64,000 nucleotides of DNA from a candidate division FCPU426 bacterium (GTDB lineage: Bacteria; Oederibacteriota; Muellerivitia; Muellerivitales; Muellerivitaceae), in assembly GCA_963719085.1 (NCBI GenBank), contig CAVRAL010000001.1, positions 512,001 to 576,000 on the forward strand, in the 5' to 3' direction. The position numbers and the translations under genes are program-made. A model generated the notes under the pieces. That model searched no databases and was not told the origin of the DNA. It worked only from the letters and a program-made list of their open reading frames with translations. Position 1 is the stretch's first letter. Each line of letters starts with the position of its first letter. This document shows positions 7,825-63,605 of the stretch, one piece after another.

Positions 7825-8901
7825 ATGGCGGATCCGGCAAAAACTGAAAGGGCGACGCCCAAAAGGCGGCAAGAGGCGCGGGAACGCGGCCAAGTGGTCC
7901 GGTCCATGGAAGTCAACTCGGTCATCATCCTGATCGCGGCGCTTTTTACTTTTCGCTACGCCGGCCCCTACATGATGAAGACCATCGGCGATGTTTGGAT
8001 TTTTACTTATCAAAACATGATGTTGAGTTTTGGGATGGAAAATGTATACAGCTATGGTTTGTTTTTCGCGGGCCAAATCGTCCTTCTGATCGCCCCCCTT
8101 TTGGCGGTGGTTTTAATCGTCTCCTTGATCTCGAATTATCTGCAAGTGGGAGTCATGTTTAGTTTAAAACCCATGACGCCTAAGCTGAGCAATATCAGCC
8201 CCGCGACCGGGTTTGGCCGCATCTTTTCCCGCCGATCGGGTGTGGAGTTGGTCAAGGCGGTCTTGAAGATTGTCATCATCGGCTGGATCGCCTATGACGG
8301 GATCAAGGGAGCCCTGCCTCAGCTGGTGCCGGCCATGGATATGCCGGGCTCAGTCGCGGTCCAGTTTGTGGGCGGACTGGCCATGTCCATTTTGGACCAC
8401 ATTCTTTTCGCCTTGATCGCCTTGGCGATCTTGGATTATTTTTACCAACGATGGGAATATGAGGAAAGTTTGAAGATGACCAAGCAAGAAATCAGGGATG
8501 AGCTCCGCCAGTCGGAGGGCGACCCCCTGATCAAGGCCCGGATTCGCCAGCTTCAGCGGGAAATGGCCCGGCGGCGCATGTTTGAGGCGATTCCGCGGGC
8601 GGATGTGGTGGTGACCAACCCCACCCACGTGGCGGTGGCCCTGGAATATAAAGACGGCATGGGAGCCCCCGTGGTACTGGCTAAAGGGGAGCGGGTAATC
8701 GCCCAAAAAATCAAGGAAATCGCGCTAAAAAACAAGATTCCGATCGTGGAAAACCCCCCGATCGCCCGGGCCCTATTAAAATCCTGTCCGGTGGGGGCCC
8801 AGATTCCGGGAAACCTTTATGAGGCGGTCGCCGAGATTTTGGCCTTTGTTTATCGTATGAATAAAAAGCGCAATAGTACGACCCTTTCCGCCACGGTTTG
8901 A
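7825..8901 (+). CDS. flhB: Flagellar export protein FlhB
   Basis: KTERATPKR, MTKQEIRDE..QSEGDP, autocleavage motif NPTH. Confidence 0.98.
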   Translation: MADPAKTERATPKRRQEARERGQVVRSMEVNSVIILIAALFTFRYAGPYMMKTIGDVWIFTYQNMMLSFGMENVYSYGLFFAGQIVLLIAPLLAVVLIVSLISNYLQVGVMFSLKPMTPKLSNISPATGFGRIFSRRSGVELVKAVLKIVIIGWIAYDGIKGALPQLVPAMDMPGSVAVQFVGGLAMSILDHILFALIALAILDYFYQRWEYEESLKMTKQEIRDELRQSEGDPLIKARIRQLQREMARRRMFEAIPRADVVVTNPTHVAVALEYKDGMGAPVVLAKGERVIAQKIKEIALKNKIPIVENPPIARALLKSCPVGAQIPGNLYEAVAEILAFVYRMNKKRNSTTLSATV

Positions 8902-14010: not shown

Positions 14011-14850
14011 ATGGCCTCGGCTGAAAAGAATGACGCGGTTTGGAAAAAGTTCTTAAAGGACAAAAACGCCAAGGACCGTGATTTTTTAGCCCGCTTTTAT
14101 TTTTTTTTAGTTGAGGCGGAAAGTCGAAGGCTTTTGGCCCGGCTTCCCTTGAAGGCTTATTGGGAAAAGAAGGATGATTTGGTTTCGGCGGGCTCCATCG
14201 GCCTTTTGCAGGCCTTGGATCACTTCGCGCCGCCCCCGGGGAAAGGCGCTTCGCCGGGACGGGCTTTCGAGGCTTATGCCCGATACCGCATCCGCGGGCA
14301 GATGGTGGATGAGCTCCGCCACATGGACTTCGCGAGGAGAAATTTAAGGAAACAAGAAAAAACGATTCAAGAAGCCAGGCGTAAACTGGAGCAAAAATTC
14401 GGGCGCGCGCCGTCGGAAGAGGAAATCGCCAAAAGTTTGGGAATGCCGCTGGACGAGCTTTACGATTTTGTGGCCGAGATCAACATGTTGAACCTTTTGT
14501 CCCTGGACGCCGAATTGGACGGTTCGGGGGGTGAAAAGGGAGCTTGGACCGATATATTGCCGGATCCCAAGGCCGAAAATGCCCTTGATAAAGTGGAGAA
14601 ACAAGAGAGAATTGAAATGGTGACGGAATCCTTGAAAAAGCTGTCGGATTCCGAGCAAAAAGTGCTTCAATTCTATTATTCCGAAAATTTAACCTTCAAA
14701 GAAGTCGGCCGGGTTCTAGGGGTGAGCGAGTCGCGGGTATGTCAAATTCATCATATGGCGGTTTTTAAACTACAGAAGAGTGTCGATGAAAGGCGGGAAC
14801 ATGACGGAGCCCAATATGGACGGCTATATAACCATCACCAACGAAAATGA
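14011..14850 (+). CDS. fliA: RNA polymerase sigma factor FliA/WhiG (sigma28)
   Basis: DDLVSAGSIGLLQAL, FEAYARYRIRGQMVDELR, LTFKEVGRVLGVSESRVCQIH; flagellar context. Confidence 0.93.
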   Translation: MASAEKNDAVWKKFLKDKNAKDRDFLARFYFFLVEAESRRLLARLPLKAYWEKKDDLVSAGSIGLLQALDHFAPPPGKGASPGRAFEAYARYRIRGQMVDELRHMDFARRNLRKQEKTIQEARRKLEQKFGRAPSEEEIAKSLGMPLDELYDFVAEINMLNLLSLDAELDGSGGEKGAWTDILPDPKAENALDKVEKQERIEMVTESLKKLSDSEQKVLQFYYSENLTFKEVGRVLGVSESRVCQIHHMAVFKLQKSVDERREHDGAQYGRLYNHHQRK

Positions 14851-17847: not shown

Positions 17848-18147
17848 TTGGGTCTTTTGGATCGGGCTAAAAAAAGGAAGATCTTTCGCAAAGCCGCGGT
17901 CGCGCTTCGGTACGATAAAAAGGCCATGCCGGCGCCGTTGGTTGTGGCCAAGGGACGCGGGGTAGTCGCTGAAAAATTAATCGAATTGGCCCGAAAAAGC
18001 GGGGTTCCGGTTTTGGAAGACCGTCTTTTAGTGGAGACATTGGACCAATTAAACGTGAATCAGGAGATTCCGCCTGAGCTTTATCAGGTGGTGGCCGAGA
18101 TTTTGGTGACGCTTTATAAAGCTGAAACCGGAATGCGAAAACAGTAA
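17848..18147 (+). CDS. FlhB C-terminal-like protein (EscU/YscU/HrcU family, YlqH/FlhX-like)
   Basis: AVALRYD...APLVVAKGRG..AEKLI, EIPPELYQVVAEIL. Confidence 0.92.
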   Translation: MGLLDRAKKRKIFRKAAVALRYDKKAMPAPLVVAKGRGVVAEKLIELARKSGVPVLEDRLLVETLDQLNVNQEIPPELYQVVAEILVTLYKAETGMRKQ

Positions 18148-18216: not shown

Positions 18217-20334
18217 GTGACGAGACCGGTGAAAAAGGCAACTTTCTTGAAAGCTCACGGCAGGCTGTTTTTCCTGGGATTGGCGGTATTCCTTAATTTG
18301 GCCGCTTGGAGCCAGGTTTATGGCCAAGTCACCACCCAGACCCAGCCCATTTTTGGGCGAAAAGAGACTTTTGGCATAGGCCCCCGGGCGATTGGGATGG
18401 GCGGAGCTTTCACGGCTTTATCGGATGACGCTTCGGCGGTTTATTGGAATCCGGCGGGTTTATCCCAGCTTTCGTCTTACGAACTGGAACTTTCCGCCTC
18501 GCCGGTTAACTTCGACAGTCATTTCGGCTTCCCTTACTACTCCTCCATTCAGTTCGTCATGCCCATCGCCAAAGAAAACACCCTGGCCCTTTCCATGTTT
18601 CGCCCTTTTAATCCCCAACGGGACTATTTCGCGGGAAGCGGCTTGGGCTCGGCTGATACGGGGGAAGCCAGCTATATTATGAATCCTTCATTTCAAGAAA
18701 GTGAAATCATCCTGTCTTACGCCGCCCGGTTCACCACGCTTCAAAATTTCGCGGTGGGCGTGAATATCAAAAGGATCACCAATGATCCCTACTACATTAA
18801 ATATTTCGCCAATTCGGACGATTCTCAAGAGCCCGAAGTCGCCCAATCGCTGGCGAACGCCACGAGGGTCATCGGTTATGGAGTTGATATCGGATTACTT
18901 TATCGTATTCCAATCACCAAATATTCCGAGGAATTCCGTTTGGGGTTGGATCTGCGCGATTTGGTCAGCCGGGTGGATTATGTGAACGGTCTCGGGGTGA
19001 CAACGGTGGCTCCGGGCCCCGTTACGACGGTCGCTTATTCCGAGGGCGGCGGTTATGAAACCAATATCCCGACCGAAATTACCTTGGGATTGGCCTTAAC
19101 CAATCATTATTTCTTCCGCGTACGGAATGTCATGGCTTTTGACTATGACCAAATTTCGGATCCGCGGTTTGACGGCTCGGATAACACTTTCATCCGTTTT
19201 GGGACTGAGTTCTGGTTTTTCAACGATGTCCTGGGCGTTCGGGCTGGATACTCAACACCGGTCACCCGTCCGGGAACGATCAGCATGGGCTTGAGCTTCC
19301 GGAGTTTAGGCGGGGATTTTCAGGCGGACTTGGCTTATCTTTTGCCGGTCAGCCCAACCGCCGACGTCGCTTCAGGTTCGGCTATTGGTGTGTATAACGA
19401 GGGCGGGATTAATTTTGAGCCCTTCTACATCGGTCTGGATTACGCTTTTGGGGGCGGGCAAGAGCTTCCGCCGCCCAAGGTCAGCGCTTTCGTGAGGCCG
19501 GCTGCCTTTACGCCCGCGCAAGGGGAAAAGGCCACCTTTTTCTTGGACACGACGGAAGACGTGGACGTGAAAAAATGGAGCGTATTGATTTACGACTCGA
19601 ATAATCATTATGTCCGCGGTCTGCGCGGGGTGGGTTCGCCTCCGACCCAACTGGTTTGGAGCGGGGAAGACGATTCGTATCAACCGCTTCCGCCGGGAGT
19701 TTATACCTGGGCCTTTCAGGTGCAGGATGAGTTGGGCCATATCGGATCCACCGCCATCCAAACGGTTGAGATTTTAGCCGCGCCTCAAGCGCTCACCCGG
19801 GATCCGGCGAAACTTTTGGCGATCCGTCAACAACAGGCGGCATTGTTGGCCCAAGAGCGTCAAACCTTAAGCGCCTTGGCCCAGAAGAATTTAAACGACT
19901 TGCTGGGCGAGCCGACGCCGAACACGGCGACGGCCGCGGGAGTGGAACCCCAGGCCAATACCTTGACGCCGGAGGCCGGAGGGGTCCCCGTGATTGGTTT
20001 TACCAGTATTCCGCCGGAAGATGTTTTGAACGCCCACTTTGACAAGAACGCCAATGGGGAACCGGTGGTGGACGTGAGTTACCAATCCAAGCTCGATTAT
20101 GTGCCTTATATTTACCAAGAGGCCTCGGATGTCATTAAGGCCACGGTTAATTCAGTAGGAACTGGTTTAAAAGACATCCAAACTCGTGTATATTACGGTA
20201 AGAATGAGCTTTCTATCAGCACGCCTAGTGAAGCCGCCGCCAATTACGCTTCGGGAAAAATTAACCAGCTTCAGTTGATGCAGCTTTCGGAAATCGTTAT
20301 TAATGGCCAAAAGGTAGGTCCGAATGGTTATTAA
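18217..20334 (+). CDS. PorV/PorQ/UPF0164-like outer-membrane beta-barrel fused to FlgD-like Ig domain and unknown C-terminal domain
   Basis: Signal peptide; GIGPRAIGMGGAFTALSDDASAVYWNPAGL; amphipathic strands; then WSVLIYDSNNHYVR...LVWSGEDDSYQPLPPGVYTW. Confidence 0.8.
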   Translation: MTRPVKKATFLKAHGRLFFLGLAVFLNLAAWSQVYGQVTTQTQPIFGRKETFGIGPRAIGMGGAFTALSDDASAVYWNPAGLSQLSSYELELSASPVNFDSHFGFPYYSSIQFVMPIAKENTLALSMFRPFNPQRDYFAGSGLGSADTGEASYIMNPSFQESEIILSYAARFTTLQNFAVGVNIKRITNDPYYIKYFANSDDSQEPEVAQSLANATRVIGYGVDIGLLYRIPITKYSEEFRLGLDLRDLVSRVDYVNGLGVTTVAPGPVTTVAYSEGGGYETNIPTEITLGLALTNHYFFRVRNVMAFDYDQISDPRFDGSDNTFIRFGTEFWFFNDVLGVRAGYSTPVTRPGTISMGLSFRSLGGDFQADLAYLLPVSPTADVASGSAIGVYNEGGINFEPFYIGLDYAFGGGQELPPPKVSAFVRPAAFTPAQGEKATFFLDTTEDVDVKKWSVLIYDSNNHYVRGLRGVGSPPTQLVWSGEDDSYQPLPPGVYTWAFQVQDELGHIGSTAIQTVEILAAPQALTRDPAKLLAIRQQQAALLAQERQTLSALAQKNLNDLLGEPTPNTATAAGVEPQANTLTPEAGGVPVIGFTSIPPEDVLNAHFDKNANGEPVVDVSYQSKLDYVPYIYQEASDVIKATVNSVGTGLKDIQTRVYYGKNELSISTPSEAAANYASGKINQLQLMQLSEIVINGQKVGPNGY

Positions 20335-21970
20335 CCAAAAAACACTTGAACTCAAAAATACCTCAAAAGGGTTATTTTTGAGTTCCTCCTTTTTTAAGTG
20401 TTTTGTCTTGTTTTGTTTTTTCTCCTTGCTTCAAAGTCCCGCCTTCGCCGTATTCGACAAGGGGGGGATTTCGGGTATTGGGGCAAGGCCTTTGGGCATG
20501 GGCGGGGCCTTCACGACCGTCGCCGACTCCAGTGACGCGATCTTTTACAATCCCGCCGGGTTGATTCAGGTTTTGCGGCCTGAAGTTTCCGGGATGGGAG
20601 CGGTTCTTTTGAACGGAAAAGAAGACCTATTTGACTTGGCTTATGTTCAACCCTTCGCGGATCAGTTGGCTTGGGCCATTGCCATTCAAGACTTGGACGA
20701 CAATGGAGGCCCCTCGGAAGGCTCGGAAAGAATTTATTACGCCACCTTCGCCGCGCCTTTGGCGGTGGACAAATCATTTTCGTTTGGTTTGAACGTCAAG
20801 TTGTTGACGGTTGATTCTCCCACCCTGCCCAATTATTCCGCCAATGGGATCGGGTTTGACATGGGCTTTTTATATCATCTGCCCATTTTGGATCCGCGTT
20901 ATGGAAAGCGCATTAACATCGGTTTATCGGCCCAGGATTTGGACACCAACATCCAATGGCAGGATGGAAGCCAAACTAAAATTCCATTGGATGTGCGTGG
21001 CGGATTCAGCTACCAGTTCAACGATGATTTAACATTGGCCTGCGAGCTGGAGGATTTTGATGATCCGGATTTATCGACCCAAAGAACTCTTTTGCACGTG
21101 GGGCTGGAAGATTGGTTTTTTCAGGACCAATTGGGTTTACGGACCGGTTACAGCGAATTTGTGACGGAAGACGGCCAGTTTACGCTGGGGATCAGCTATC
21201 GTTCCCGGACCTGGGGAGTGGACTACGCTTTCATCGGTCATCCGCAATTCTTGGGTTCTTCCCACCGTATTTCGGCCAACTGGCGCTTCGGGGACACCTT
21301 TTTCGCCAAAGCCCAAAGTTTTATTCCCGAAGGCGTCGCCTCTTATGTTGAGGGGGACATCATTACGTTGAAATGGCTGGGTTCTCCCAGCGTTTCGGTG
21401 GACGGCTATAACGTTTATTTCAGCAAGACCACGGGCAGCGGCTATGTCAAAATTAACAAGAACCCCATCAAGACGACTTATTACGCGCTTCGGGGTTTGG
21501 AAAAAAACACCCAATATTATTTCGTCGTGACTTCGGTGACGGCCACGGTTCCCCCGGTGGAAAGCCAGTATTCGCGTGAGGTGGTGGCGATCACCACCGC
21601 GGCGCCCGGCGCTCCTGTGGTTGTTCAGAGCGACGTTCAAAACGAAGGGGTGATTGATATCGCCAAGCAATCCCAGATGGGGAATTTCCCCGATCCCGCG
21701 AAAAATGGGTTGCGGGGCTATAACATCTATTTCTCGGAAGTTTCCGGCGGGCGGTTTGACCGGGTTAACAACCAACCCATCGCGAATGTCCCGACCTATC
21801 TGGTCCGAAAGCTGAAAGTGGGCCAGCGTTATTTCTTTAAATTCACTTCCGTCGGAATGGACGGCTCGGAAAGCGTTCCGACGCAAGAGATCAGCTTCAT
21901 CGCCTTGCCTTACAGTACGGTGGTGCAGAGCGGCACCGCGAGCGTTCCCGCGGCGGGCGCGGCGCACTAA
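20324..21970 (+). CDS. PorV/PorQ-like beta-barrel fused to two fibronectin type III-like domains
   Basis: GIGARPLGMGGAFTTVADSSDAIFYNPAGL; LKW..SPSVSVDGYNVYFS..GLEKNTQYYFVVTSV and GYNIYFSEV..LKVGQRYFFKFTSV. Confidence 0.8.
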   Translation: MVINQKTLELKNTSKGLFLSSSFFKCFVLFCFFSLLQSPAFAVFDKGGISGIGARPLGMGGAFTTVADSSDAIFYNPAGLIQVLRPEVSGMGAVLLNGKEDLFDLAYVQPFADQLAWAIAIQDLDDNGGPSEGSERIYYATFAAPLAVDKSFSFGLNVKLLTVDSPTLPNYSANGIGFDMGFLYHLPILDPRYGKRINIGLSAQDLDTNIQWQDGSQTKIPLDVRGGFSYQFNDDLTLACELEDFDDPDLSTQRTLLHVGLEDWFFQDQLGLRTGYSEFVTEDGQFTLGISYRSRTWGVDYAFIGHPQFLGSSHRISANWRFGDTFFAKAQSFIPEGVASYVEGDIITLKWLGSPSVSVDGYNVYFSKTTGSGYVKINKNPIKTTYYALRGLEKNTQYYFVVTSVTATVPPVESQYSREVVAITTAAPGAPVVVQSDVQNEGVIDIAKQSQMGNFPDPAKNGLRGYNIYFSEVSGGRFDRVNNQPIANVPTYLVRKLKVGQRYFFKFTSVGMDGSESVPTQEISFIALPYSTVVQSGTASVPAAGAAH

Positions 21971-22001: not shown

Positions 22002-22787
22002 ATGCCAAGTGGTTTATACATAGCGGCTTCAGGCATGAACGCGACGATGACACAGCAGGATGTTATCGCCAACAATCTGGCCAACGTCAGCACGGTGGGC
22101 TTTAAGGGCAACCGGGCCATTGACGCCGCTTTTCCGACCTACTTGATCGCCCGGATCAACGACCAGCACCTCAAGACGCCTGAAGGCAGCGTGGAACTTC
22201 GACCCAATATAGGGCTCATGGGCGGCGGGGTGATTCCGGTGGAGACGCCGGTGGATTACAGCCAAGGGTCCCGGGTGGAAACCCAAAATCCCGTGGACTT
22301 CGCCTTGACGGGCCCGGGCTTTTTCACCGTCATGAATCCGGACGGCAAGATTCTCTATACCCGGGATGGAAGTTTTAATCTGGACTCGGACGGCCGATTG
22401 GTGACCAAGGACGGGTTGCCGGTGATGGGCCATAACGGACAAATTTTCGTCGACGGAAAGAACCTGGTCGTGGATCAGCAGGGCAATATCACGGTGGATG
22501 GCAAGGCCGTGGACCAATTGTCAATTGTGCAAATTAAGAACCAAGACCAACTGGTGAAGGTGGGGCATTCCCTGTTTGAGGGCAATTCGGCGCTTCAAGT
22601 GACGAAATGGCCGGATAATATCCAGGTGCAGCAAGGCTTTTTAGAGCAATCGAACGTTAATTCGGTTGAGGAAATGGTTCATATGATCGATGTCACTCGG
22701 TCCTATGAAATGAATTCTCGGGTGGTTTCGACCTATGATAATATCATGGGCCAGGCGGCGTCCGAGATAGGGACGTTGAGGGTTTAG
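22002..22787 (+). CDS. flgF: Flagellar basal-body rod protein FlgF
   Basis: GLYIAASGM..QDVIANNLANVSTVGFK, YTRDGSF, LEQSNVNSVEEM; precedes flgG. Confidence 0.9.
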   Translation: MPSGLYIAASGMNATMTQQDVIANNLANVSTVGFKGNRAIDAAFPTYLIARINDQHLKTPEGSVELRPNIGLMGGGVIPVETPVDYSQGSRVETQNPVDFALTGPGFFTVMNPDGKILYTRDGSFNLDSDGRLVTKDGLPVMGHNGQIFVDGKNLVVDQQGNITVDGKAVDQLSIVQIKNQDQLVKVGHSLFEGNSALQVTKWPDNIQVQQGFLEQSNVNSVEEMVHMIDVTRSYEMNSRVVSTYDNIMGQAASEIGTLRV

Positions 22788-22806: not shown

Positions 22807-22904
22807 GACGGCCGGACTGCTATGCGGAGGCCGTTCTTATCGCTGAACGATTGAGGCGATAAAAACATTCGCGGTTTTCCCGTTTCTTTCGGGAAAGTCG
22901 TGAA
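22807..22904 (+). ncRNA. Structured 5' leader of flgG (three hairpins; candidate cis-regulatory RNA)
   Basis: ACGGCC-GGA-CTGC-TAT-GCGG-A-GGCCGT; TTATCGC-TGAACGATTGAG-GCGATAA; 15-bp stem 22868-22882/22890-22904. Confidence 0.6.
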
Positions 22905-22919
22905 AATTTGGGAGGCACT

Positions 22920-23714
22920 ATGCAGTCACTGTACACGGCAGCCACGGGTATGGAAGCCCAGCAGATGAATATCGATACGATCGCCAATAATCTGGCGAAC
23001 GTCAGCACGACGGGCTTCAAAAAACAGCGGATCGATTTCCAAGATCTCCTTTATCTCAATTTGAAACCGGCCGGCACCCCGACTTCCCCGGAAACCAAAA
23101 CCCCGACTCCGATCGAAATAGGCGAAGGCGTGAAATCGGTCGCCACCGACCGCATTTTCACCCAGGGAAGCGTTCAGAACACTAACAATCCGCTGGACTT
23201 GATGATCTCAGGGAATAACGGATTTTTTAAAGTGACCCTGCCCAACGGCGACACGGCTTATACCCGGGATGGAACCTTCCACCAAGACGGTGATGGGAAC
23301 ATCGTCACCAGCAATGGTTATTATTTAGACCCCCAAGTGCAGATTCCCCAGGACACCAGCACAGTGACTATTAATCAGGTCGGCCAGATTTTCGTGACCC
23401 AATCGGGTTCGACGACCCAAACGCAAATCGGCCAGCTGGAAATCAGCAATTTCGTGAATCCGGGTGGTTTGCAATCCTTGGGAAGCAATCTTTATGAGTC
23501 CACTCCCGCTTCAGGGGAGGCCATTGACGGCACCCCCGGTAGCGCGGGATTTGGGAACGTCACCCAAGGGGCCCTTGAGGCCTCCAATGTGGACGTGGTC
23601 TCCGAGATGGTGAATTTGATCACGGCCCAACGGGCTTATGAAATGAACGCGAAAACAGTTTCCACGGCGGACGATATGTTGGCGACGGTCGCTCAGTTGA
23701 AACAGCTTCCGTAA
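22920..23714 (+). CDS. flgG: Flagellar distal rod protein FlgG
   Basis: SLYTAATGMEAQQMNIDTIANNLANV, FQDLLY, LEASNVDVVSEMVNLITAQRAYEMN; GGAGG RBS at 22911. Confidence 0.96.
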   Translation: MQSLYTAATGMEAQQMNIDTIANNLANVSTTGFKKQRIDFQDLLYLNLKPAGTPTSPETKTPTPIEIGEGVKSVATDRIFTQGSVQNTNNPLDLMISGNNGFFKVTLPNGDTAYTRDGTFHQDGDGNIVTSNGYYLDPQVQIPQDTSTVTINQVGQIFVTQSGSTTQTQIGQLEISNFVNPGGLQSLGSNLYESTPASGEAIDGTPGSAGFGNVTQGALEASNVDVVSEMVNLITAQRAYEMNAKTVSTADDMLATVAQLKQLP

Positions 23715-26468: not shown

Positions 26469-26936
26469 GTGAACAACGCGATCGTACCAACTCAAATGAT
26501 GACTTCCGCGCTTCAAGCGTCTGATCCGGGTTTCAGCCTTTCGGGTTTTGGGAAGGCGTTCTCCATCAACTCGCCGTCGAACTTAGATAACCTTCAAAAT
26601 TATTTGTCGGGCGCTTCTTTGGGACATTCCTCGGTTTCCTTAAATTCGATCCGCCATTTAAACCCTTTGACGGGAACACCGACCTATTCCTCGGCGGATT
26701 TGAAAAAGGTGTCCCAAAACTTTGAGAGTATCTTTATGCGGATGATGTTCAAGGAAATGCGGGATTCGGTTCAAAAGTCCGATTTGTTCCCCGATTCCAA
26801 AACCATGGGTCTTTTCGAATCGATGTCCGATGACCAGCTTTCGGATACTTTATCCGCGGCGGGCGGCATCGGGCTGGGGAAGATGATCTACCAACAACTC
26901 CAACAAGTCACCGGTCCGCATCAAAAGACCGTCTAA
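26469..26936 (+). CDS. flgJ: FlgJ rod-binding domain protein (no muramidase domain)
   Basis: LKKVSQNFESIFMRMMFKEMR..GGIGLGKMIYQQL. Confidence 0.85.
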   Translation: MNNAIVPTQMMTSALQASDPGFSLSGFGKAFSINSPSNLDNLQNYLSGASLGHSSVSLNSIRHLNPLTGTPTYSSADLKKVSQNFESIFMRMMFKEMRDSVQKSDLFPDSKTMGLFESMSDDQLSDTLSAAGGIGLGKMIYQQLQQVTGPHQKTV

Positions 26937-27367
26937 TGAATCTGGCCAATTGCTCCAAATGCGGGAAAGTTTATTCCCCGGTTTCCGTTGACCGGACCCT
27001 CTGCCCGGCTTGCGTCAAAGAAGAGCAAGACAACTTCCTGAAGGTTTTCCATTTTTTAGGCTCCCAGCCCAGCGCCACCGCCCAGGAGATCTCCCAGGCA
27101 ACCGGGGTAGAACTGACTGAAATTTACCGTTATGTCAGGGAAAACAGGCTTCGCCTGGCCAAGACGGATACGGGGCTTCGTTGTGAGACTTGCGGAGTGC
27201 CGATCAGCCAGGGGAAAACCTGCGAAAATTGCAGGAAAAAGCTTTCCGCTGAATTAAGTAATGATATAGACAAATTTAAGCAAAATAGGCTTAAAATGCC
27301 CGAAAAGACCCCCGAAGTCCGTGACCCGAAGTATCTGAAAAAGTATCGTGACAAAGATGGCCGCTAA
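26936..27367 (+). CDS. YvyF-like flagellar operon protein (two Cys4 zinc ribbons)
   Basis: LANCSKCGK...CPAC, ISQATGV, CETCG...CENC; upstream of flgM. Confidence 0.85.
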   Translation: MNLANCSKCGKVYSPVSVDRTLCPACVKEEQDNFLKVFHFLGSQPSATAQEISQATGVELTEIYRYVRENRLRLAKTDTGLRCETCGVPISQGKTCENCRKKLSAELSNDIDKFKQNRLKMPEKTPEVRDPKYLKKYRDKDGR

Positions 27368-27426: not shown

Positions 27427-27453
27427 TCAAGTTTTTGGTTAATGGGTCGTTAG
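27427..27453 (+). promoter_or_regulatory. Candidate sigma28-type promoter for flgM
   Basis: TCAA-N15-GTCGTTAG (canonical TAAA-N15-GCCGATAA); same -10 recurs upstream of flgD. Confidence 0.6.
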
Positions 27454-33422: not shown

Positions 33423-33449
33423 TAAAGTCTGTCAGAGTAATGTCGTTAG
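33423..33449 (+). promoter_or_regulatory. Candidate sigma28-type promoter upstream of flgD
   Basis: TAAA-N15-GTCGTTAG. Confidence 0.6.
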
Positions 33450-33933: not shown

Positions 33934-34344
33934 GTGGTTCAGCAAGTTAATTTTAATGACGCTTCCTTAAAACCGATGGATTCGGTGCAGAATCAGGCCC
34001 AGATCCAGATTTTGCAGCAGCAGGCCAGCAAGGCCGCGGAATCGGTTCAGTCGTTTACGGATGTGCTTCAAACGACCGTCAATCAGGGAACGGCTTTAAA
34101 ATTCTCCGCGCACGCGAAAGACCGATTGAGCTTACGCAATATCAATCTTTCGGCGGAGGACGTTTCCCGGATGACGGATGCCGTGAATAAGGCGGCGGCG
34201 AAGGGCGCGAAACAATCCTTGCTGGTTATGAACAACTTGGCTTTTATCGTCAGCGTCACCAATCGGACGGTGATTACGGCGTTGGACGATAGCAACATGA
34301 AGGAGAATGTTTTTACGAATATTGATAGTGCGGTAATTGTGTAA
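33934..34344 (+). CDS. TIGR02530 family flagellar operon protein
   Basis: LKFSAHAKDRLSLRNI, AFIVSVTNRTVITA, ENVFTNIDSAVI; between flgD and flgE. Confidence 0.92.
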   Translation: MVQQVNFNDASLKPMDSVQNQAQIQILQQQASKAAESVQSFTDVLQTTVNQGTALKFSAHAKDRLSLRNINLSAEDVSRMTDAVNKAAAKGAKQSLLVMNNLAFIVSVTNRTVITALDDSNMKENVFTNIDSAVIV

Positions 34345-34375
34345 CTTGCCGTTAGGAATTGTGGTGCAGTAAATA

Positions 34376-34429
34376 TCGGGCTGGACCTCTTAGAGGGGGC
34401 CCGAATCAGGGTTGGTGGATTACCAACCT
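34376..34429 (+). ncRNA. Structured 5' leader of flgE (candidate cis-regulatory RNA)
   Basis: TCGGGCT-GGA-CCTC-TTA-GAGG-G-GGCCCGA then GGTTGGT-GGATT-ACCAACC. Confidence 0.6.
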
Positions 34430-34449
34430 AATACTTCTAGGAGGACGTC

Positions 34450-36318
34450 ATGGGTCTCGAAGCAATGTATAGCGCGATTTCCGGTTTGCAGGGTGATAGC
34501 ACGTGGTTGGATGTCATTGGAAATAACATTTCCAACGTCAACACCACGGCTTACAAGGCGAGCCGTCTCGAGTTTTCAAACCAAATCAGCAACAACTTAA
34601 ACAGCGGCACCGGGGACGATCCGGCGGAAGGCCTCGGCGGAACCAATCCGGAGCAGGTCGGATTGGGTGTCAAGGTGGCTTCCATCGATACCTTGTTTAC
34701 CCAAGGCCAGCTCCAACAGACGGGTATCACCACTGATATCGCCATCACGGGCACAGGCTTCCTCGACGCGAAGGTGGGGGATACAACCTACCTGACGCGA
34801 GCCGGCAATTTGAACTTCGACAGCAATGGAAATTTGGTCGACCAAAACGGCGGCTTGATCCAGGGGTATACTGCTTCGCTCGAATATACTCAAACCACAG
34901 TCGACAACAACGTCCCTCTGGTTGTTACCTCGGCGAATTTGGTTTTGAACAATCAAAACCCGGGCAACATCAGCGACATCCAGATCAAGCCCGACATGGT
35001 AGTTCCGGCCAAAGCGACGACGGTCATGAATATCGCCGGCAATCTGGATTCGTTCCAGCAGGCTGATCAGACCGGAGGTATCCTGGACGTCGCTACGACC
35101 GCTGCGGGGCCTTTGTTGCCCTTTGTTGAAGCACCAGGTGTTACTACAAATGCGGCGGATTTGGTCATTGGTCCCGATGTTCGCGCAGGGGCTCCCGCAG
35201 GCGGGGTGGTTCTCCACCAAACTGGAAACCTTTCCACAGGAAATCCTGTGATCACGGGAGGGGGCGTGCCTTTGGCCACCGCTCGGACTACCAATACGTT
35301 TGCCTGGAATCAACAGCCACCTATTTCGCCAGCAACGGAAACGGTATCGACGGTTTATGATTCCTTGGGCAATCCTCATGAAATCACGACCCTCTATTAT
35401 CAGGTGAATGACTTAGGCGAGGCGGGTGTTAATAACCCGACGGCTGCGGGTCAGAGCCAGGCGGTTTACGCTTGGTATTCGTTTGATACGACGGGTGGCG
35501 TAGCTCCCTTTAGTGGCGCGGTAGTTCCCGCAGGTAGCAACGCTCCGGATTCGAATTTAGTCGGGGGAACCGGTATCGCGGAGGACTATACCCGCAATAC
35601 GGGCGATACCTATGTTGGAGATTTCTTGGTCTTCAACACCGATGGATCTTTGGCCACGACGGGCGGCGCGGATGTCACGGGCGCCAATGCGACCATGGTG
35701 CAAGCCAAAATTTACTTGCCGCCGGCTGATAACAACGCCGGGGTCGCGACTTTGCCTGCCAATTCTCCTTTGCCGACCATTGGTGCCAATATCACCCAAA
35801 TCGGTATGAATTTCGGTACCGCGGGTATTTTGGGAACTGGAGAGCGGGATGGCTTGTTCAGCGATGCGGAAGGAACCTTCCAAGTCGTGAACGGGGTCAA
35901 TACCTACGTGCCGAGCGATACCGCCACCGTGAAGTCGCAAGACGGATACGCGGACGGAACCTTGCAAAGCCTTTCCTTCGACAAGACCGGTACGATTCAA
36001 GGGGTCTTCTCGAACGGTAAGACCTTCGCTTTGGGCCAAGTGGTCCTCACCTCGGTCACCAACCAGGAAGGTCTCGAGAGTGTCGGGAACGGCTACTACA
36101 GCCAAACTGCCAGCTCGGGCCCGTCCTTCACGGGTTTGGCCGGTACGGACAACTTGGGAACAGTGGCGGGGAGCTCTTTGGAAGGGTCGAACGTCGACTT
36201 GACCGTGGAACTTTCCAACATGATCATCGCCCAACGGGGTTATGAATCGAACGCCCGGGTTATCTCGGTCGTCAATTCGACCTTGCAGACCTTGACGCAG
36301 TTGGGCCAAGGCTCTTAA
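34450..36318 (+). CDS. flgE: Flagellar hook protein FlgE
   Basis: DVIGNNISNVNTTAYK, TRAGNLNFD, VYDSLG, QDGYADG.L, LEGSNVDLTVELSNMIIAQRGYESN. Confidence 0.96.
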   Translation: MGLEAMYSAISGLQGDSTWLDVIGNNISNVNTTAYKASRLEFSNQISNNLNSGTGDDPAEGLGGTNPEQVGLGVKVASIDTLFTQGQLQQTGITTDIAITGTGFLDAKVGDTTYLTRAGNLNFDSNGNLVDQNGGLIQGYTASLEYTQTTVDNNVPLVVTSANLVLNNQNPGNISDIQIKPDMVVPAKATTVMNIAGNLDSFQQADQTGGILDVATTAAGPLLPFVEAPGVTTNAADLVIGPDVRAGAPAGGVVLHQTGNLSTGNPVITGGGVPLATARTTNTFAWNQQPPISPATETVSTVYDSLGNPHEITTLYYQVNDLGEAGVNNPTAAGQSQAVYAWYSFDTTGGVAPFSGAVVPAGSNAPDSNLVGGTGIAEDYTRNTGDTYVGDFLVFNTDGSLATTGGADVTGANATMVQAKIYLPPADNNAGVATLPANSPLPTIGANITQIGMNFGTAGILGTGERDGLFSDAEGTFQVVNGVNTYVPSDTATVKSQDGYADGTLQSLSFDKTGTIQGVFSNGKTFALGQVVLTSVTNQEGLESVGNGYYSQTASSGPSFTGLAGTDNLGTVAGSSLEGSNVDLTVELSNMIIAQRGYESNARVISVVNSTLQTLTQLGQGS

Positions 36319-36365: not shown

Positions 36366-36406
36366 GAAAGGCGACGCCGGATAAAACCCGTCGCCTTTCT
36401 TTTTTT
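36366..36406 (+). terminator. Intrinsic terminator after flgE
   Basis: GAAAGGCGACG / CGTCGCCTTTC stem followed by T7. Confidence 0.85.
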
Positions 36407-36482: not shown

Positions 36483-37406
36483 ATGAACTCTCGAAAAATC
36501 CTATTTCTTTTCGTGCTGCTTTTGGCGGGCGGTTGGGGTTGTAAAAACAACTCGACCACCTCTCCCAATTCGGCTCATCCCGTGGACTTTACGGTAGGCC
36601 AGTTCGGGTCCGGTTTTGACGATTTAAATGTTCCGGCCGGGATTGATGTCGATGGCTCGGATAATCTTTACGTTTCAGATTTTGGGAACAACCGCATTAA
36701 ACAATACAACTCAAACGGCACATGCTTGATGACTTGGAGTTCGGCGGCGGCAAGCGTGAGCAATGTGGCTGCCACTATTCAATCGCCTTATGGTTTGCGA
36801 TTGGACGCGGGAAGCAATGTGTTTGAGGTGGATAAAAATGGAAGGCAAATTCAGGAATTTTCCACCTTGGGCGTTTTCTCGAAGAAGTGGGCCCAGCCTG
36901 CCGGGGCCCTTTCGGCTTGGTTGGCGATCAATAAGACATCGGGGGACATTTATGTGACCGATGGGCCGAATTACGAAGTTCACCATTATGATAACGCCGG
37001 AAATTTAATCGGATCATTTGGGCAGCTCGGTTCAGGCCCCGCTATCGGGGATTTCGATGGAATCGGCGGCATCGCTATCGATTCTTCGGGCCAGGTTTAC
37101 GTGGTCGATGAGGGGTCGCGGCGCATTGAGATATTCACTGCGGCGGGAGCTCCGGTGACGGCTTGGAGTTTGGGAGTACGGTCCCCGGTCGGAGGAGTTC
37201 AGTTTGACCATTCGGGAAATCTCTGGGTGATGGATACGGATAATCAGACGATCCTGGAATTTAATTCAACGGGCACGCTGATCCAGACCTGGAAAAACCC
37301 GGAAGGGCAAGCGCAGCCAACCGATATCGCTTTTGACAGTACTGGGGCAATCTGGGTGAGTTACCAAGACACGGGGCAAGCTTTTCTGGTGAAATACGCC
37401 CATTAA
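36483..37406 (+). CDS. NHL-repeat beta-propeller lipoprotein
   Basis: Lipobox-like LLAGGWG-C; repeats PAGIDVDGSDNLYVSDFGNNRI, GGIAIDSSGQVYVVDEGSRRI, PTDIAFDSTGAIWV. Confidence 0.85.
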   Translation: MNSRKILFLFVLLLAGGWGCKNNSTTSPNSAHPVDFTVGQFGSGFDDLNVPAGIDVDGSDNLYVSDFGNNRIKQYNSNGTCLMTWSSAAASVSNVAATIQSPYGLRLDAGSNVFEVDKNGRQIQEFSTLGVFSKKWAQPAGALSAWLAINKTSGDIYVTDGPNYEVHHYDNAGNLIGSFGQLGSGPAIGDFDGIGGIAIDSSGQVYVVDEGSRRIEIFTAAGAPVTAWSLGVRSPVGGVQFDHSGNLWVMDTDNQTILEFNSTGTLIQTWKNPEGQAQPTDIAFDSTGAIWVSYQDTGQAFLVKYAH

Positions 37407-39333: not shown

Positions 39334-40305
39334 ATGATCCCGACTTCTTCGCGCTTGCGCCGGATACTTATTTTTTCATTTTTTTTATCGCTCGGGTTCA
39401 ACCAACTCGCCCAGGCCCAAACCGGCGGCCGGAGCGCTTTCGAGTTTTTGAAAATTTCGCCATTCTCCCGCGCGGTCGGGATGGGGGAAGCTTATTCGGC
39501 GGTGGGTGATGATGTGGCGTCCATTCAATACAATCCGGCCGGTTTGGCCAGTATCTTAAACAACGAACTGGATTTCACTTATCTGTCGCTTTACCAGGGG
39601 GTCAATTTTGAGTCGGTGGCCGTCGCGGTCCCCTTGGAGACTCAGTTACCCGGGATCGGCGGCGTGGTGGCGGCCAATGTGAATATCGTCCAAGGCGGAT
39701 CTTTTCAGCGAACCGATGATTCGGGCAACCCGAACGGGACCTTTACGACGGGCGATGATATTGTGACCTTGGCTTACGCGAAGTCTTTTGGCATGGTTCA
39801 ATTGGGTGCTTCCGGAAAATTCATTCAACAGCAAATTGACACGGTCACCAACACCCTTTTCGCGGCCGACGCCGGGGTCGTGGTAACGCCTTCGTTTCCG
39901 GGGATGCGGGTGGGACTTTCGATTAAAAACATCGGGGCCCAAGACAACAGCGACTATGATTTGCCCATGATCTTGGACGCGGCGATTTCTTACCGCCGCT
40001 ACGAGCTTTTTACCTATCAGGACGACGGGGCCATCAGCGTTGAGACCGATTTTCCGATCCATCCGATCGAGGATCAGGTCGGAATGAGGGTCGGAGCCGA
40101 GTATAATTTTAAGTGGGTGGGAAGCCGGGCGACCTTGCGGATGGGCTATAAGTTTTTGGATCAGAATCTTTCGGGCACCGGGTTCACGGTGGGGGCGGGC
40201 TATTCTTTGGATTTGGACGGCGCCGTGGTTTTCCTGGATTACGCGTTCGCGCCCGAGGATGTTTTTGGGGTGTCGAACCGCCTTTCGCTTTCCACGAAAT
40301 TTTAA
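39334..40305 (+). CDS. PorV/PorQ family outer-membrane beta-barrel
   Basis: AFEFLKISPFSRAVGMGEAYSAVGDDVASIQYNPAGL; ends DYAFAP..FGVSNRLSLSTKF (terminal Phe). Confidence 0.85.
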   Translation: MIPTSSRLRRILIFSFFLSLGFNQLAQAQTGGRSAFEFLKISPFSRAVGMGEAYSAVGDDVASIQYNPAGLASILNNELDFTYLSLYQGVNFESVAVAVPLETQLPGIGGVVAANVNIVQGGSFQRTDDSGNPNGTFTTGDDIVTLAYAKSFGMVQLGASGKFIQQQIDTVTNTLFAADAGVVVTPSFPGMRVGLSIKNIGAQDNSDYDLPMILDAAISYRRYELFTYQDDGAISVETDFPIHPIEDQVGMRVGAEYNFKWVGSRATLRMGYKFLDQNLSGTGFTVGAGYSLDLDGAVVFLDYAFAPEDVFGVSNRLSLSTKF

Positions 40306-40317
40306 AAGGGTCAACGA

Positions 40318-41325
40318 ATGACCGCGAGGTTTTCCTTAATGAAAAGCGTTTTATTTTCGATTGCCCTATGTTTTTGGGCTTTTCAGGCTTTGGCCCAAGG
40401 CGTGGGAACGACCACGGGGGATATTTTAAAAATTAACCTGGGGGACCGGCCCGCCGGCATGGCGGGGGTTTATACGGCCATGGGGGACGACTCTTACTCC
40501 ATTGATTACAATCCGGCCGGATTGGCGCTTTTAAGATCCACGCAGTTGATTGTGCTGCACTTGGACAGCCTGGCCCAAATTCAATACGAGTATTTGACTT
40601 TCGCCACGCCTTTAGGCATCGACAATACGGTGGCGGCCAACTTGATTTACCGCCATATGCCGCCCATTGACAATAACAATGGAAATCCGGCGGTCAATGC
40701 GGACGATTTTTTGGCCGAAGCCACTTTCGCCCATGTCTTTTCGACCTCGTTAAGGGTGGGCGGGACGATTAAATTCCTCAAAAGTGATTTGGCGAACTAT
40801 ACGGCCTCCGCTTTTTGCGGGGACCTGGGGGTTCAATTGGATAAACTGCCCTATGGCATCCGGGTGGGTCTTGCGATCCAAAACCTGGGGCCGGGTATGA
40901 CGTTCGCGCCCCCGGGCACTTCGCCGCCGCCGAATACGCCTTCCGAACCCTTGCCCATGTTCATCCGTTTGGGGATTGGGACCCATCAGGTGATTGATTC
41001 GACCAAGGATTTAAATTTGGGCGTTGAGATTTTCAAGCCCAGCGACCAAAGCATCAAGGCGGCTTTTGGGGGCGAATTTTGGATTTTCCCCCAGCTGTTC
41101 GCGGTCCGCGCCGGATATAAAATTGAGAATTTTGGCTCCATCCCCTCGGACGCTTCCGCCAACGTTTTCCAGTATTACACCTTGGGCTGCACTTTGACGC
41201 GCCGTGTGGACGATAACGATTTTTCGCTCGACTTGGCCTACGACCCGGGGAATTTTGGCGAGACGGTGGAGGACACTTTTTCTTTCGCGCTCAACTTTAA
41301 GTTTAATGAATTCCGGATTTTTTGA
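40318..41325 (+). CDS. PorV/PorQ family outer-membrane beta-barrel
   Basis: ILKINLGDRPAGMAGVYTAMGDDSYSIDYNPAGL; GLAIQNLG; terminal Phe. Confidence 0.85.
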   Translation: MTARFSLMKSVLFSIALCFWAFQALAQGVGTTTGDILKINLGDRPAGMAGVYTAMGDDSYSIDYNPAGLALLRSTQLIVLHLDSLAQIQYEYLTFATPLGIDNTVAANLIYRHMPPIDNNNGNPAVNADDFLAEATFAHVFSTSLRVGGTIKFLKSDLANYTASAFCGDLGVQLDKLPYGIRVGLAIQNLGPGMTFAPPGTSPPPNTPSEPLPMFIRLGIGTHQVIDSTKDLNLGVEIFKPSDQSIKAAFGGEFWIFPQLFAVRAGYKIENFGSIPSDASANVFQYYTLGCTLTRRVDDNDFSLDLAYDPGNFGETVEDTFSFALNFKFNEFRIF

Positions 41326-41483: not shown

Positions 41484-41559
<76 letters not shown>

Positions 41560-61817: not shown

Positions 61818-63605
61818 ATGAACACACTGTCCGCTTCCACCATCGAAAACTTTCTGCCGAACGGGAACCTCCCCCCTTTAGCCTCCGGCTTTTCCAGCCG
61901 GAAAATCACGCTTGGCAAGCGGGATATTCTGGCTTGTTTTCGCTCCTTGGTCCTCTTGGTTTTGCTCGTTCTTCTTTTTTTTAACGACCAGAATGGGGAG
62001 GCTTTATCCGATCCCAAGGCCTATTGGTTGATCGGCGCGTTTTTGGCCACCATCGCCGGCATGTTCCTCATCAAGACCCAATCCTTCGAGAATAAAATGG
62101 TTTTGCCCGGCTTTTTTCTGCTGGATACCTTTTTTATTACCGGCGGCATTTATTTAACGGGTGTGACCGACACGGACTTGTTCCTGATCTTTTTCATCAC
62201 GGTTTTCATCTCGGCCCTTTCCCAGGACATCAAAAGTGTTTTCGGGGTCGCGATCGTTTCTTGCGCGCTTTACGCTTTTCTCCAATATAAAACCACCGGT
62301 GAGTTTTTTTCCGAGGATACGGCCCTTTTGGTCCGGTTTCCCTTTCTTTTCGTGGCCGCCGCCATGAGCGGTTTTATCGCCATGGAAGGGAAAAAAGACA
62401 AAGAGGAAAAGAACCATTTACAAGCCATGAACCGCTTCCTGGCCGAACAAGCCGATTCATCCACCTCCAAGCTTTTGGAAACCAACCGCCGGCTCAAGAC
62501 GCTTTTGGAATATCACCATTGCATCCTCTCGTCGTTGAAAACCGGGGTGATTGTGGCCCGGCTGGATGGGACTGTTCGTACCTTCAATTCGGGGGCCCGG
62601 GAAATCACCGGATTCGTGGAAGCGGAGATGGCGGATCGGAAACTGGAGGACTTGCCGGTAAATTTGGAGCCGGTCGCCCGGGCTTTGCAATTGACGCTTC
62701 AAGAAGAAAAGGGCTGCCTGCAGGATCATTTGGAAATCAAGACGGCCCGTTCGGAAGCCGTGCCGGTCACGTTGGAAACTTCCGTTTTGAAAGGCGGCAA
62801 CGGCCAGGTGTTGGGGGCCATCGCCACCTTGAAAGACACGTCCCTTTTACACCAAATGGAAACCCAGCTTTTGCGCGCCGAGCGTCTTTCGGCCTTGGGC
62901 GAGATGGCCGCCGGGGTGGCCCATGAGATTAAAAATCCTTTGAACGCGATCATGGGTTTTTCCAAGCGTCTTTCGGCCAAGATTGAGGAACCAAGCCTCA
63001 AAAAATACGCCGATATTATCGTGGATGAAGTTCGCCGCATGGACGCCACCATCAATGATGTCCTGGAATACAGCCGGCCCGACCGCGTGAGCAAGGAGCC
63101 GGCCGACATTCATAAAATCTTGGAAGAAACCGTGGTCTTTTTGGGCGAGAAACTGGAGAAGGCGGGAGTGGAGGTGAAACAGGAATTTGACGCCGAGGTT
63201 CCCCTGGTTTCCCTGGATTTGGTCAAGGTTCGGCAAGTGGTTTTAAATTTGGTGCTGAACTCCATCCAGGCGATGGACAAAGGGGGGCGGATTACGCTTC
63301 GCACCCGGGTGACGGAAGGTGTGGCGCCGGAATCGGGCGCTCAAAATGAGGCGCTTGTTTTTCAACGGTTGTTTCTCAAACAAAAGATGGTATTGGTTTC
63401 AATCACGGACACGGGATGCGGCATCCCGAAAGAAAATATGGCCAAGCTGTTCCACCCCTTTTTCACGACCAAAATCACGGGAACGGGATTGGGCCTTTCG
63501 ATTTGCCACAAAATTATCGCCTCGCATGGCGGGACGCTGGATGTTCAAAGCGTGGTCGGGCAGGGAAGCACGTTTATGATTTACCTTCCTCTCGGGGAAG
63601 AATAA
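61818..63605 (+). CDS. Membrane PAS-domain sensor histidine kinase (PilS/AtoS-like)
   Basis: Multi-TM N-domain, PAS (FNSGAREITG), H-box AHEIKNPL, N box, DTGCGI, FTTK, GTGLGL. Confidence 0.93.
   Translation: MNTLSASTIENFLPNGNLPPLASGFSSRKITLGKRDILACFRSLVLLVLLVLLFFNDQNGEALSDPKAYWLIGAFLATIAGMFLIKTQSFENKMVLPGFFLLDTFFITGGIYLTGVTDTDLFLIFFITVFISALSQDIKSVFGVAIVSCALYAFLQYKTTGEFFSEDTALLVRFPFLFVAAAMSGFIAMEGKKDKEEKNHLQAMNRFLAEQADSSTSKLLETNRRLKTLLEYHHCILSSLKTGVIVARLDGTVRTFNSGAREITGFVEAEMADRKLEDLPVNLEPVARALQLTLQEEKGCLQDHLEIKTARSEAVPVTLETSVLKGGNGQVLGAIATLKDTSLLHQMETQLLRAERLSALGEMAAGVAHEIKNPLNAIMGFSKRLSAKIEEPSLKKYADIIVDEVRRMDATINDVLEYSRPDRVSKEPADIHKILEETVVFLGEKLEKAGVEVKQEFDAEVPLVSLDLVKVRQVVLNLVLNSIQAMDKGGRITLRTRVTEGVAPESGAQNEALVFQRLFLKQKMVLVSITDTGCGIPKENMAKLFHPFFTTKITGTGLGLSICHKIIASHGGTLDVQSVVGQGSTFMIYLPLGEE

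Follow-up and report, generated by a model that had tools for sequence, protein, structure and literature searches.

In Campylobacter jejuni, co-immunoprecipitation with CsrA enriches the flagellar mRNAs of flgE (68-fold), flgG2 (44-fold), flgI, flgH and flaA, and the protein binds GGA in hairpins and at Shine-Dalgarno sequences, also between the genes of polycistronic mRNAs, with a reported site context of (C/A)A(A/T)GGA (PMC4894983, accessible portion). Here we analyze two leaders, upstream of flgG and flgE, within 64,000 nucleotides (nt) from a candidate division FCPU426 bacterium (GenBank assembly GCA_963719085.1, contig CAVRAL010000001.1, positions 512,001 to 576,000 of the forward strand; this whole stretch is called the window). 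Each contains a small hairpin, hp1, with an unpaired GGA opposite a single purine. As in the CsrA-bound leaders of C. jejuni flaA, flgI and flgE, an unpaired hairpin GGA lies upstream of a GGA-containing Shine-Dalgarno sequence of a flagellar gene, and as with CsrA sites the elements are located in a 5' untranslated region (UTR; flgE) or between cistrons (flgG) (PMC4894983, same portion). In contrast to CsrA-bound leaders, the stems are frozen in sequence and the targets are rod and hook genes rather than flagellin; unlike in CsrA sites, the GGA of hp1 lies in a 3x1 internal loop and not in an apical hexaloop. A CsrA-bound flagellar leader is also found in Bacillus subtilis hag. The CsrA/RsmA site presents GGA in an apical loop with the A-rich context CANGGANG, and CsrA bridges two GGAs at a distance of 10-63 nt.

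The cyclic di-GMP (c-di-GMP)-I riboswitch (GEMM, RF01051) is likewise built of a pair of neighboring hairpins, of which the first contains a 3-nt internal loop, and occurs elsewhere upstream of flgB, flgC and flgG (PMC1950547, accessible portion). Our leaders share with it the two adjacent hairpins, the conserved 3-nt internal loop in the first and the flagellar context, but they are much smaller, give no covariance-model match and lack a GNRA tetraloop or receptor. The flg-Rhizobiales RNA motif of Rfam, known from comparative genomics only, is a structured RNA and candidate cis-regulator ahead of flagellar genes; the present leaders belong to a different lineage and match no Rfam family. Operators of MS2/PP7-type phage coat proteins are short bulged hairpins near the ribosome-binding region, which are read via their shape and a few bases. 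Like these, hp1 is a short, bulged, purine-containing element with a small loop near the ribosome-binding region; unlike them, it stands in a cellular flagellar operon, carries GGA opposite a purine and leaves the start site outside the hairpin. Intercistronic stabilizer or processing hairpins and the antitermination element EAR, finally, are structured RNAs in long gaps of long operons. The flgG element likewise occupies a long gap of a co-directional operon, before a gene needed in higher amount. However, hp1 is frozen in sequence, recurs as a hairpin in a promoter-proximal 5' UTR and has no Rfam match.

Structure and conservation of the flgG and flgE leaders

The window was compared with three syntenic relatives, the metagenome-assembled genomes L001, L002 and L003; the set represents two clades of an uncultured lineage. 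The relatives were obtained from one FlgI-based genome scan (66 pattern matches, 3 confirmed), their FlgI proteins are 89, 79 and 77% identical to that of the window, and the gene order is the same throughout. Since L002 ends upstream of flgE, the flgE leader is compared in three genomes and the flgG leader in four.

A conserved structure on the sense strand is located directly upstream of flgG and of flgE, as a preliminary description made from the window sequence had claimed. The flgG element is found at the same place in all three relatives, the flgE element in both relatives that cover it. In the window the leaders comprise the following features.

22807-22835, plus strand: flgG hp1, GACGGCC-GGA-CUGC-UAU-GCGG-A-GGCCGUU, in the flgF-flgG intercistronic spacer
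22837-22862, plus strand: flgG hp2, covarying stem of 7 base pairs (bp) with a conserved loop of 10-12 nt, GAAYGAUNGA
22863-22867, plus strand: A-rich single-stranded tail after flgG hp2, AAACA (UAAAAAC including the stem end), read from the sequences
22868-22904, plus strand: flgG hp3, 15-bp hairpin ending 6 nt before GGAGG (22911-22915)
22910-22915, plus strand: flgG Shine-Dalgarno sequence GGGAGG; start codon ATG at 22920-22922
34376-34404, plus strand: flgE hp1, UCGGGCU-GGA-CCUC-UUA-GAGG-G-GGCCCGA, with unpaired GGA at 34383-34385 and an unpaired G opposite
34409-34429, plus strand: flgE hp2, covarying stem with the loop GGAUU in two of three genomes and UGAUU in the third (L003)
34430-34438, plus strand: A/U-rich tail; Shine-Dalgarno sequence AGGAGGA at 34439-34445; flgE start codon ATG at 34450-34452

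The claimed folds are present in the sequence before both genes and are recovered by RNAfold, in the minimum free energy (MFE) as well as the centroid structure: the flgF-flgG spacer folds into hp1, hp2 and hp3, the flgE leader into hp1 and hp2. Isolated hp1 copies fold as described, with energies of -14.2 to -17.4 kcal/mol. The architecture of hp1 was correctly described as identical in both leaders, except that the outer stem has 7 bp in each, one pair more in flgG than had been given. Behind this stem in flgG come the unpaired 5' GGA (22814-22816), the inner stem of 4 bp, a loop of 3 nt and a single unpaired A on the 3' side. The seventh outer pair is G.U in the window and L001 and A-U in L002 and L003. 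The GGA is predicted to be unpaired in all four flgG leaders (pairing probability 0.01-0.38; MFE and centroid agree). The 15-bp hairpin ahead of the flgG Shine-Dalgarno sequence is also where the preliminary description placed it. The stability of whole leaders relative to shuffled sequences gave a mixed picture, uneven across leaders and genomes: the z-scores are -2.83 (window), -3.27 (L001), -1.80 (L002) and -1.08 (L003) for flgG and -0.66 (window), -1.30 (L001) and -2.50 (L003) for flgE.

The flgF-flgG spacer measures 132 nt in the window and 132-165 nt across the four genomes, whereas other neighboring genes overlap or are at most 16 nt apart. GC-rich extra sequence lies between the flgF stop codon and hp1 in L002 (7376-7412) and L003 (7375-7415).

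We regard comparative conservation as the decisive evidence for the element and as stronger than a chance test with a layout descriptor. In flgG hp1, all four genomes agree at 25 of the 26 non-loop positions, and the sole variable position is still paired; the loop varies freely (UAU, GAAU, AAA, AAU). For comparison, 26 of 149 shared fourfold-degenerate sites in flgF and flgG are invariant, with pairwise fourfold identities of 35-53%. About 4.5 of the 26 hp1 positions would be expected to be invariant at this rate, and, with independent sites, the observed 25 correspond to a probability on the order of 1e-17. The spacer 5' of hp1 and the whole of hp3 have diverged past alignment. All three genomes keep the flgE hp1, with identical copies in the window and L001. 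In L003 a 2-nt insertion extends its inner stem to 5 bp while the loop still has 3 nt, and two G-to-A changes convert a U.G pair to U-A and the unpaired purine from G to A.

For the chance test, a strict descriptor of the layout was written after both sites had been seen. Exactly the two hp1 sites match it on both strands of the window; 200 dinucleotide shuffles had a mean of 0.09 matches, and none reached two. A loose descriptor gave 5 matches against 4.2 expected, and 80 of 200 shuffles reached 5.

Several observations argue for an RNA on the sense strand rather than a DNA palindrome. The flgG hp2 covaries among orthologs (two of seven pairs changed on both sides and one on one side, with 28 of 28 cells paired), and the flgE hp2 covaries too. 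In hp3, four unrelated sequences keep a hairpin, in the MFE structure of all four genomes and in the centroid of three. G.U pairs are present in hp1 and hp3. The plus-strand fold of hp1 is more stable than the minus-strand fold in six of seven copies and equal in one; for the whole leaders the plus and minus strands give -45.4 vs -32.4 and -33.8 vs -25.0 kcal/mol. The 3-vs-1 asymmetry of the internal loop is found in all seven hp1 copies. It is thus very probable that hp1 is part of a real, selected, sense-strand RNA element.

Transcription of flgE

The two leaders differ in their predicted transcription, for which these features are relevant.

34348-34355, plus strand: -10 element GCCGTTAG of a sigma-28-like flgE promoter
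27427-27453 (flgM), 33423-33449 (flgD) and 34348-34355 (flgE): promoter motif in the window
6950, 13016 and 13918 (L001), 12278 and 18384 (L002), 12115, 18450 and 19418 (L003): promoter motif in the relatives
36366-36406, plus strand: terminator-like hairpin closing the flgE unit, 11-bp stem, -19.8 kcal/mol, followed by T7

The plus-strand 8-mer G(C/T)CGTTAG occurs 12 times in the window and the related loci, and 11 copies lie in leaders of flgM (four of four), flgD (four of four) and flgE (three of three). Nine copies carry TCAAGTTT, TAAAGTCT or TAAAGGTT 11 nt upstream. The recurrent pattern, TCAAGTTT or TAAAGTYT followed by N11 and G(C/T)CGTTAG, is present ahead of flgM, flgD and flgE wherever these genes are covered. 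It resembles the sigma-28 consensus, and fliA is present in the cluster. A sigma-28 position weight matrix built from nine sites scores these training sites at 23.8-27.3 bits and the L001 flgE site at 14.8 bits. The flgE promoter of the window has a perfect -10 and a degenerate -35 inside the upstream open reading frame (ORF). The -35 is good in L003, where an insertion of ~60 nt (19371-19433) between the upstream stop codon and the promoter supplies a much better one.

In the flgF-flgG spacer the matrix gives background scores only (6.4, 6.1, 8.6 and -0.5 bits; ranks 112 to 3412 of 716,736). An internal promoter of this type was rejected on these scores, and the flgG element is therefore read as intercistronic.

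The terminator-like hairpin after flgE was missed by a consensus terminator scan because of its 12-nt loop. With a predicted promoter, an hp1- and hp2-bearing leader of ~87 nt, the gene and this hairpin, flgE appears to form a transcription unit of its own. The flgM and flgD leaders, which follow the same promoter type, comprise ~25 nt and are unstructured; hence the flgE leader is special among them. To our knowledge, FliA-type promoters on hook genes are unusual outside spirochetes. In Treponema denticola, a sigma-28-like promoter has been described for the fliK(tap1)-flgD-flgE operon (PMC12878829, accessible portion).

A proposed shared leader module

The seven hp1 copies, four from flgG and three from flgE, were placed in a gap-consistent alignment (A4). 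All 66 cells of its structure are standard pairs, and 5 of the 11 pairs are changed on both sides. Of 500 shuffles of the 3' partners, one reached the observed pairing percentage and covariation score and 28 reached the count of pairs changed on both sides; when the 3' partners were slid instead, pairing fell to 30-65%. Columns common to all copies are the GGC/GCC of the outer stem, GGAC, the C-G pair closing the loop and the GG on the 3' side. The likeness appears to extend beyond hp1 when the sequences are read: the loop of hp2 contains GAU in both leaders (GAAYGAUNGA in flgG, GGAUU or UGAUU in flgE), and hp2 is followed by an A-rich, UAAAAAC-like tail, which adjoins the Shine-Dalgarno sequence in flgE and is separated from it by hp3 in flgG. 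A covariance model of the seven copies (R1) revealed no third copy in 119,576 bases (window and L001-L003, both strands). Seven of its 12 matches at an expectation value (E) of at most 10 are the training copies (39.5-44.6 bits). The best other match (61884-61902, minus strand, 20.5 bits) lies inside a histidine-kinase gene, lacks the inner hairpin and was rejected.

A selected cis-acting RNA function is indicated by conservation, strand, the position by a strong Shine-Dalgarno sequence and the difference from the flgM and flgD leaders. The best reading, in our opinion, is a lineage-specific, sense-strand cis-regulatory leader module, in which hp1, hp2 with its GAU loop and the A-rich tail precede the strong Shine-Dalgarno sequence of each of the two genes. 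The flgE module would be part of the 5' UTR of a dedicated sigma-28-type transcript, the flgG module of an unusually long intercistronic spacer. In the mechanism that we rank first, hp1 would in both be the docking site of a trans-acting RNA-binding regulator, which would alter translation initiation or the lifetime of the mRNA for two high-copy axial proteins. That hp1 is read by something and not merely folded is suggested by the unchanging unpaired GGA with its opposite purine and by stems that are frozen beyond the needs of pairing. The binding of a protein, its identity and the direction of its effect are what we infer; that the reader is a trans-acting protein is a good possibility, which we hold tentatively and short of calling it probable.

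The leading candidate for such a protein is CsrA together with FliW; the GGA-binding CsrA dimer would bridge the upstream GGA and the GGA of the Shine-Dalgarno sequence. An unpaired GGA displayed by a stem-loop, one of the features of CsrA sites, is present in hp1. Across bacteria, the genes found together with core flagellar genes include those of CsrA/FliW (PMC13277936, accessible portion). Nevertheless, it is doubtful that CsrA specifically reads hp1.

A number of points weigh against the module as outlined here, and the case against CsrA is substantial. The covariation described earlier holds in so far as the stems of flgG and flgE differ and still pair; nearly all of it, however, is between the two types, and 10 of the 11 pairs never vary within the flgG orthologs. 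The shared motif, similarly, stands as a common geometry with the GGAC and GGC/GCC core, but a covariance model of the flgG copies only (R2) ranks the flgE hp1 12 of 35 when filters are off, at 9.8 bits and E 3.4, and does not detect it under default filters. Because the four training sequences are nearly identical, this comparison has low power. That the two hp1 types are the same is a matter of layout and not of detectable homology. The sample consists of four genomes from two clades. As to CsrA, Pfam gave no match to it on selected ORFs of the window, including small ones of at least 50 amino acids outside large ORFs, and no csrA, fliW, flgL or flagellin gene is found within the window. The GGA of hp1 lies in an internal loop with CC/CU-GGA-C flanks in all seven copies, in place of an A-rich context in an apical loop. 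It is 97 nt from the GGA of the Shine-Dalgarno sequence in flgG and 57 nt in flgE, where the distance for the hp2 GGA is 23 nt. An apical-loop GGA exists in flgE hp2 only, and L003 (UGAUU) no longer has it. Finding GGA inside a Shine-Dalgarno sequence is trivial and expected anyway, and the near-total invariance of both stem arms exceeds the needs of a protein that reads a loop.

The distal-rod protein FlgG and the hook protein FlgE must be made in far more copies than the products of their operon neighbors; in Salmonella there are ~24 FlgG vs 5-6 of other rod proteins, and ~120 FlgE. The proposal of the preliminary description, that one RNA-binding protein controls rod/hook stoichiometry post-transcriptionally, is plausible and partly supported. 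The control of this stoichiometry is what we infer from the identity of the two genes only. We know of little on how ratios are set post-transcriptionally in long flagellar operons, beyond the CsrA/FliW control of flagellin and a few small RNAs. A shared, strongly selected hairpin before exactly flgG and flgE would give a handle on stoichiometry and might lead to a new regulator. What limits the weight of the element is the sample of four genomes from a narrow uncultured lineage and a proposed role that derives from sequence.

Alternative explanations

Intercistronic hairpins that provide differential stability are well known, e.g. from the pap and puf operons, and the hairpins may have a factor-independent structural role of this kind. 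They would uncouple flgG from the translation of flgF, prevent the A/U-rich ribosome-binding region from pairing with sequence further upstream and/or lie on either side of an endonuclease site within the A-rich tail; cleavage would then give upstream and downstream mRNAs different lifetimes and produce stoichiometry without a dedicated regulator. The long flgF-flgG spacer among otherwise overlapping or closely spaced genes, the conservation of hp3 as a hairpin and not as a sequence, and the single-stranded A-rich tail after hp2 in both leader types fit this explanation. However, a purely structural hairpin should drift and covary like hp2 and hp3, whereas hp1 is nearly frozen. Moreover, the same GGA, purine and layout recur in the flgE 5' UTR, where uncoupling is not needed, and hp1 begins at least ~14 nt from the predicted flgE 5' end and so is not placed like a 5'-terminal stabilizer. 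We consider this role somewhat unlikely, while taking it seriously. The gene-specific, frozen hp1 sequences would be explained if hp1 were a self-contained switch, with its 5' half pairing alternatively with the initiation region of its own gene. The site would be free when hp1 is formed and closed when it is melted, the state being chosen by temperature, a ligand or a protein. In flgE, CCUCUUAGA could pair with the Shine-Dalgarno region UCUAGGAGG, in flgG GACUGC with GCAGUC at codons 1-3, which is kept in all four genomes. The flgE complementarity amounts to 10 bp in the window and L001 and to 11 bp with one bulge in L003, where the insertion in hp1 is accompanied by an inserted A next to the Shine-Dalgarno sequence. 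When forced, the alternative flgE fold has -31.0 vs -33.9 kcal/mol for the hp1 fold in the window and -34.7 vs -34.4 kcal/mol in L001, where it is the MFE structure; for flgG it lies 1.6-4.7 kcal/mol above the MFE in all four genomes. In L003, on the other hand, the flgE alternative is 9.6 kcal/mol worse, and the duplex energies are only marginally better than those of shuffled hp1 (fractions of shuffles at least as good: 0.33, 0.03, 0.05 and 0.07 for flgG; 0.05, 0.07 and 0.04 for flgE, the orthologs not being independent). The target also differs, being the Shine-Dalgarno sequence in flgE and the start codon in flgG, and a CCUC/GAGG stem resembles an anti-Shine-Dalgarno sequence by construction. 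We consider a switch improbable.

A small-molecule riboswitch with a compact two-hairpin aptamer, or a processive-antitermination RNA that permits read-through of a long operon in the manner of put or EAR, appears very unlikely. The hairpin pair, with a conserved 3-nt internal loop in its first member, is reminiscent of GEMM (PMC1950547, accessible portion), a PilZ-domain gene is present in the cluster, and the flagellar genes are co-directional over ~37 kb. Yet no Rfam family, including c-di-GMP-I/II and EAR, matches either leader at E of at most 10; the hp1 loop consists of 3-4 variable nt and is not a GNRA tetraloop, no conserved pseudoknot or junction was found on reading the alignments, and flgE is a short unit with its own predicted promoter and terminator. 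An operator at the DNA level, with near-palindromes bound by a dimeric transcription factor and incidental RNA folds, would account for two frozen arms around a variable center. A protein that could be considered is encoded at the locus just upstream of flgM (26936-27367): it belongs to the YvyF family (TIGR03826), has two CxxC...CxxC zinc-ribbon halves around a helix-turn-helix-like segment, and is kept in all four loci with 55-78% identity. The helix-turn-helix reading was made by eye from the alignment, and an AlphaFold model from the 4-sequence alignment is poor (predicted local distance difference test, pLDDT, 61.1; predicted template modeling score, pTM, 0.38). Against an operator, half-sites and spacing differ between flgG (N15) and flgE (N17), the 3-vs-1 nt asymmetry is conserved, the G.U positions would be mismatches, the adjacent hp2 and hp3 covary as RNA, and the flgG spacer contains no promoter above background; we regard it as highly improbable. 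There is also a slim chance that hp1 is the operator of a dedicated RNA-binding regulator other than CsrA, which would read the GGA/purine loop. The YvyF-family protein, encoded 4 kb downstream, and FlhF, which is related to the signal recognition particle, would be candidates; such a regulator might fix the proportion of rod to hook or recruit the mRNAs of flgG and flgE to the export gate, coupling translation to type III secretion.

Comparison with known RNA families

The cis-regulatory leader module was also compared with described RNA elements. With Rfam 15 at the gathering threshold, a transfer RNA (tRNA) was the only match in the whole window. At E of at most 10, both leaders gave only chance matches at 12-15.5 bits to models of small nucleolar RNA, microRNA and clustered regularly interspaced short palindromic repeats (CRISPR). 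This excludes c-di-GMP-I/II, EAR and other curated flagellar motifs, and the check for a prior description in Rfam, which the preliminary description had suggested, thus yielded none. No description of a hairpin shared by flgG and flgE leaders came up in our searches of open-access text either. We present the element as a candidate cis-regulatory RNA motif that is new but familiar in kind; it is known from two clades of one uncultured lineage, with four genomes in all.

A kink turn (K-turn) has a 3-nt bulge and, immediately after it, tandem sheared G.A/A.G pairs. What comes after the GGA bulge in hp1 is a C-G pair, and a K-turn or K-loop was rejected. The label "K-loop-like", which had been given to hp2, could not be upheld: tandem GA/GA pairs are possible there, but with one nucleotide on each side and without the 3-nt bulge (judged by the sequence rule only). 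An intrinsic terminator or attenuator was rejected for hp1 as well; flgE has no U-tract, and the terminator scan lists neither hp1. The sequence 3' of hp1 is UUCUUAU in flgG (UUCUCAC in L002 and L003) and AUCAGGG or AAAAAGG in flgE. An AUG in or next to the hp1 loop of three of the four flgG leaders raised the possibility of a leader peptide, which was rejected because L002 has AAG and flgE has no such start. In the window, where the hp1 loop together with the first inner-stem G makes up this AUG, the frame (22829-22861) has 10 codons and ends at a UGA in the hp2 loop; it has 10 codons in L001 also and 29 in L003.

Organization of the flagellar locus

Both leaders belong to a single large co-directional flagellar cluster of ~37 kb on the plus strand of the window. 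Families were assigned with Pfam and NCBIfam. In order, the cluster contains the following genes.

fliI (partial), fliJ, motA, motB, fliL, fliM, fliN, fliO, fliP, fliQ, fliR, flhB, flhA, flhF, flhG
PilZ-domain gene, fliA (14011-14850), FapA, free-standing FlhB C-terminal-like gene, two PorV/PorQ-like genes
flgF (22002-22787), flgG (22920-23714), flgA, flgH, flgI, FlgJ rod-binding gene
YvyF-family zinc-ribbon gene (26936-27367), flgM, flgN, flgK, fliK, flgD
TIGR02530 "flg_new" gene (33934-34344), flgE (34450-36318), NHL-repeat gene, flbD

The order yvyF-flgM-flgN-flgK matches the Bacillus locus, which runs on into fliW-csrA; we count this in favor of the proposed reading.

Four paralogs of the PorV/PorQ family (type IX secretion-like outer-membrane barrels) are located in or flanking the cluster (18217-20334, 20324-21970, 39334-40305 and 40318-41325), and the two 5' of flgF are syntenic in all three relatives. 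The free-standing protein of 99 amino acids (17848-18147) matches the C-terminal domain of FlhB only (TIGR00789, FlhB-like); full-length flhB is separate (7825-8901). NHL domains of some eukaryotic proteins bind RNA. The NHL-repeat beta-propeller gene of the window (36483-37406) is inserted between flgE and flbD, and no link to the leaders was seen. The one tRNA gene (41484-41556, 72.3 bits) lies 3' of the flagellar cluster.

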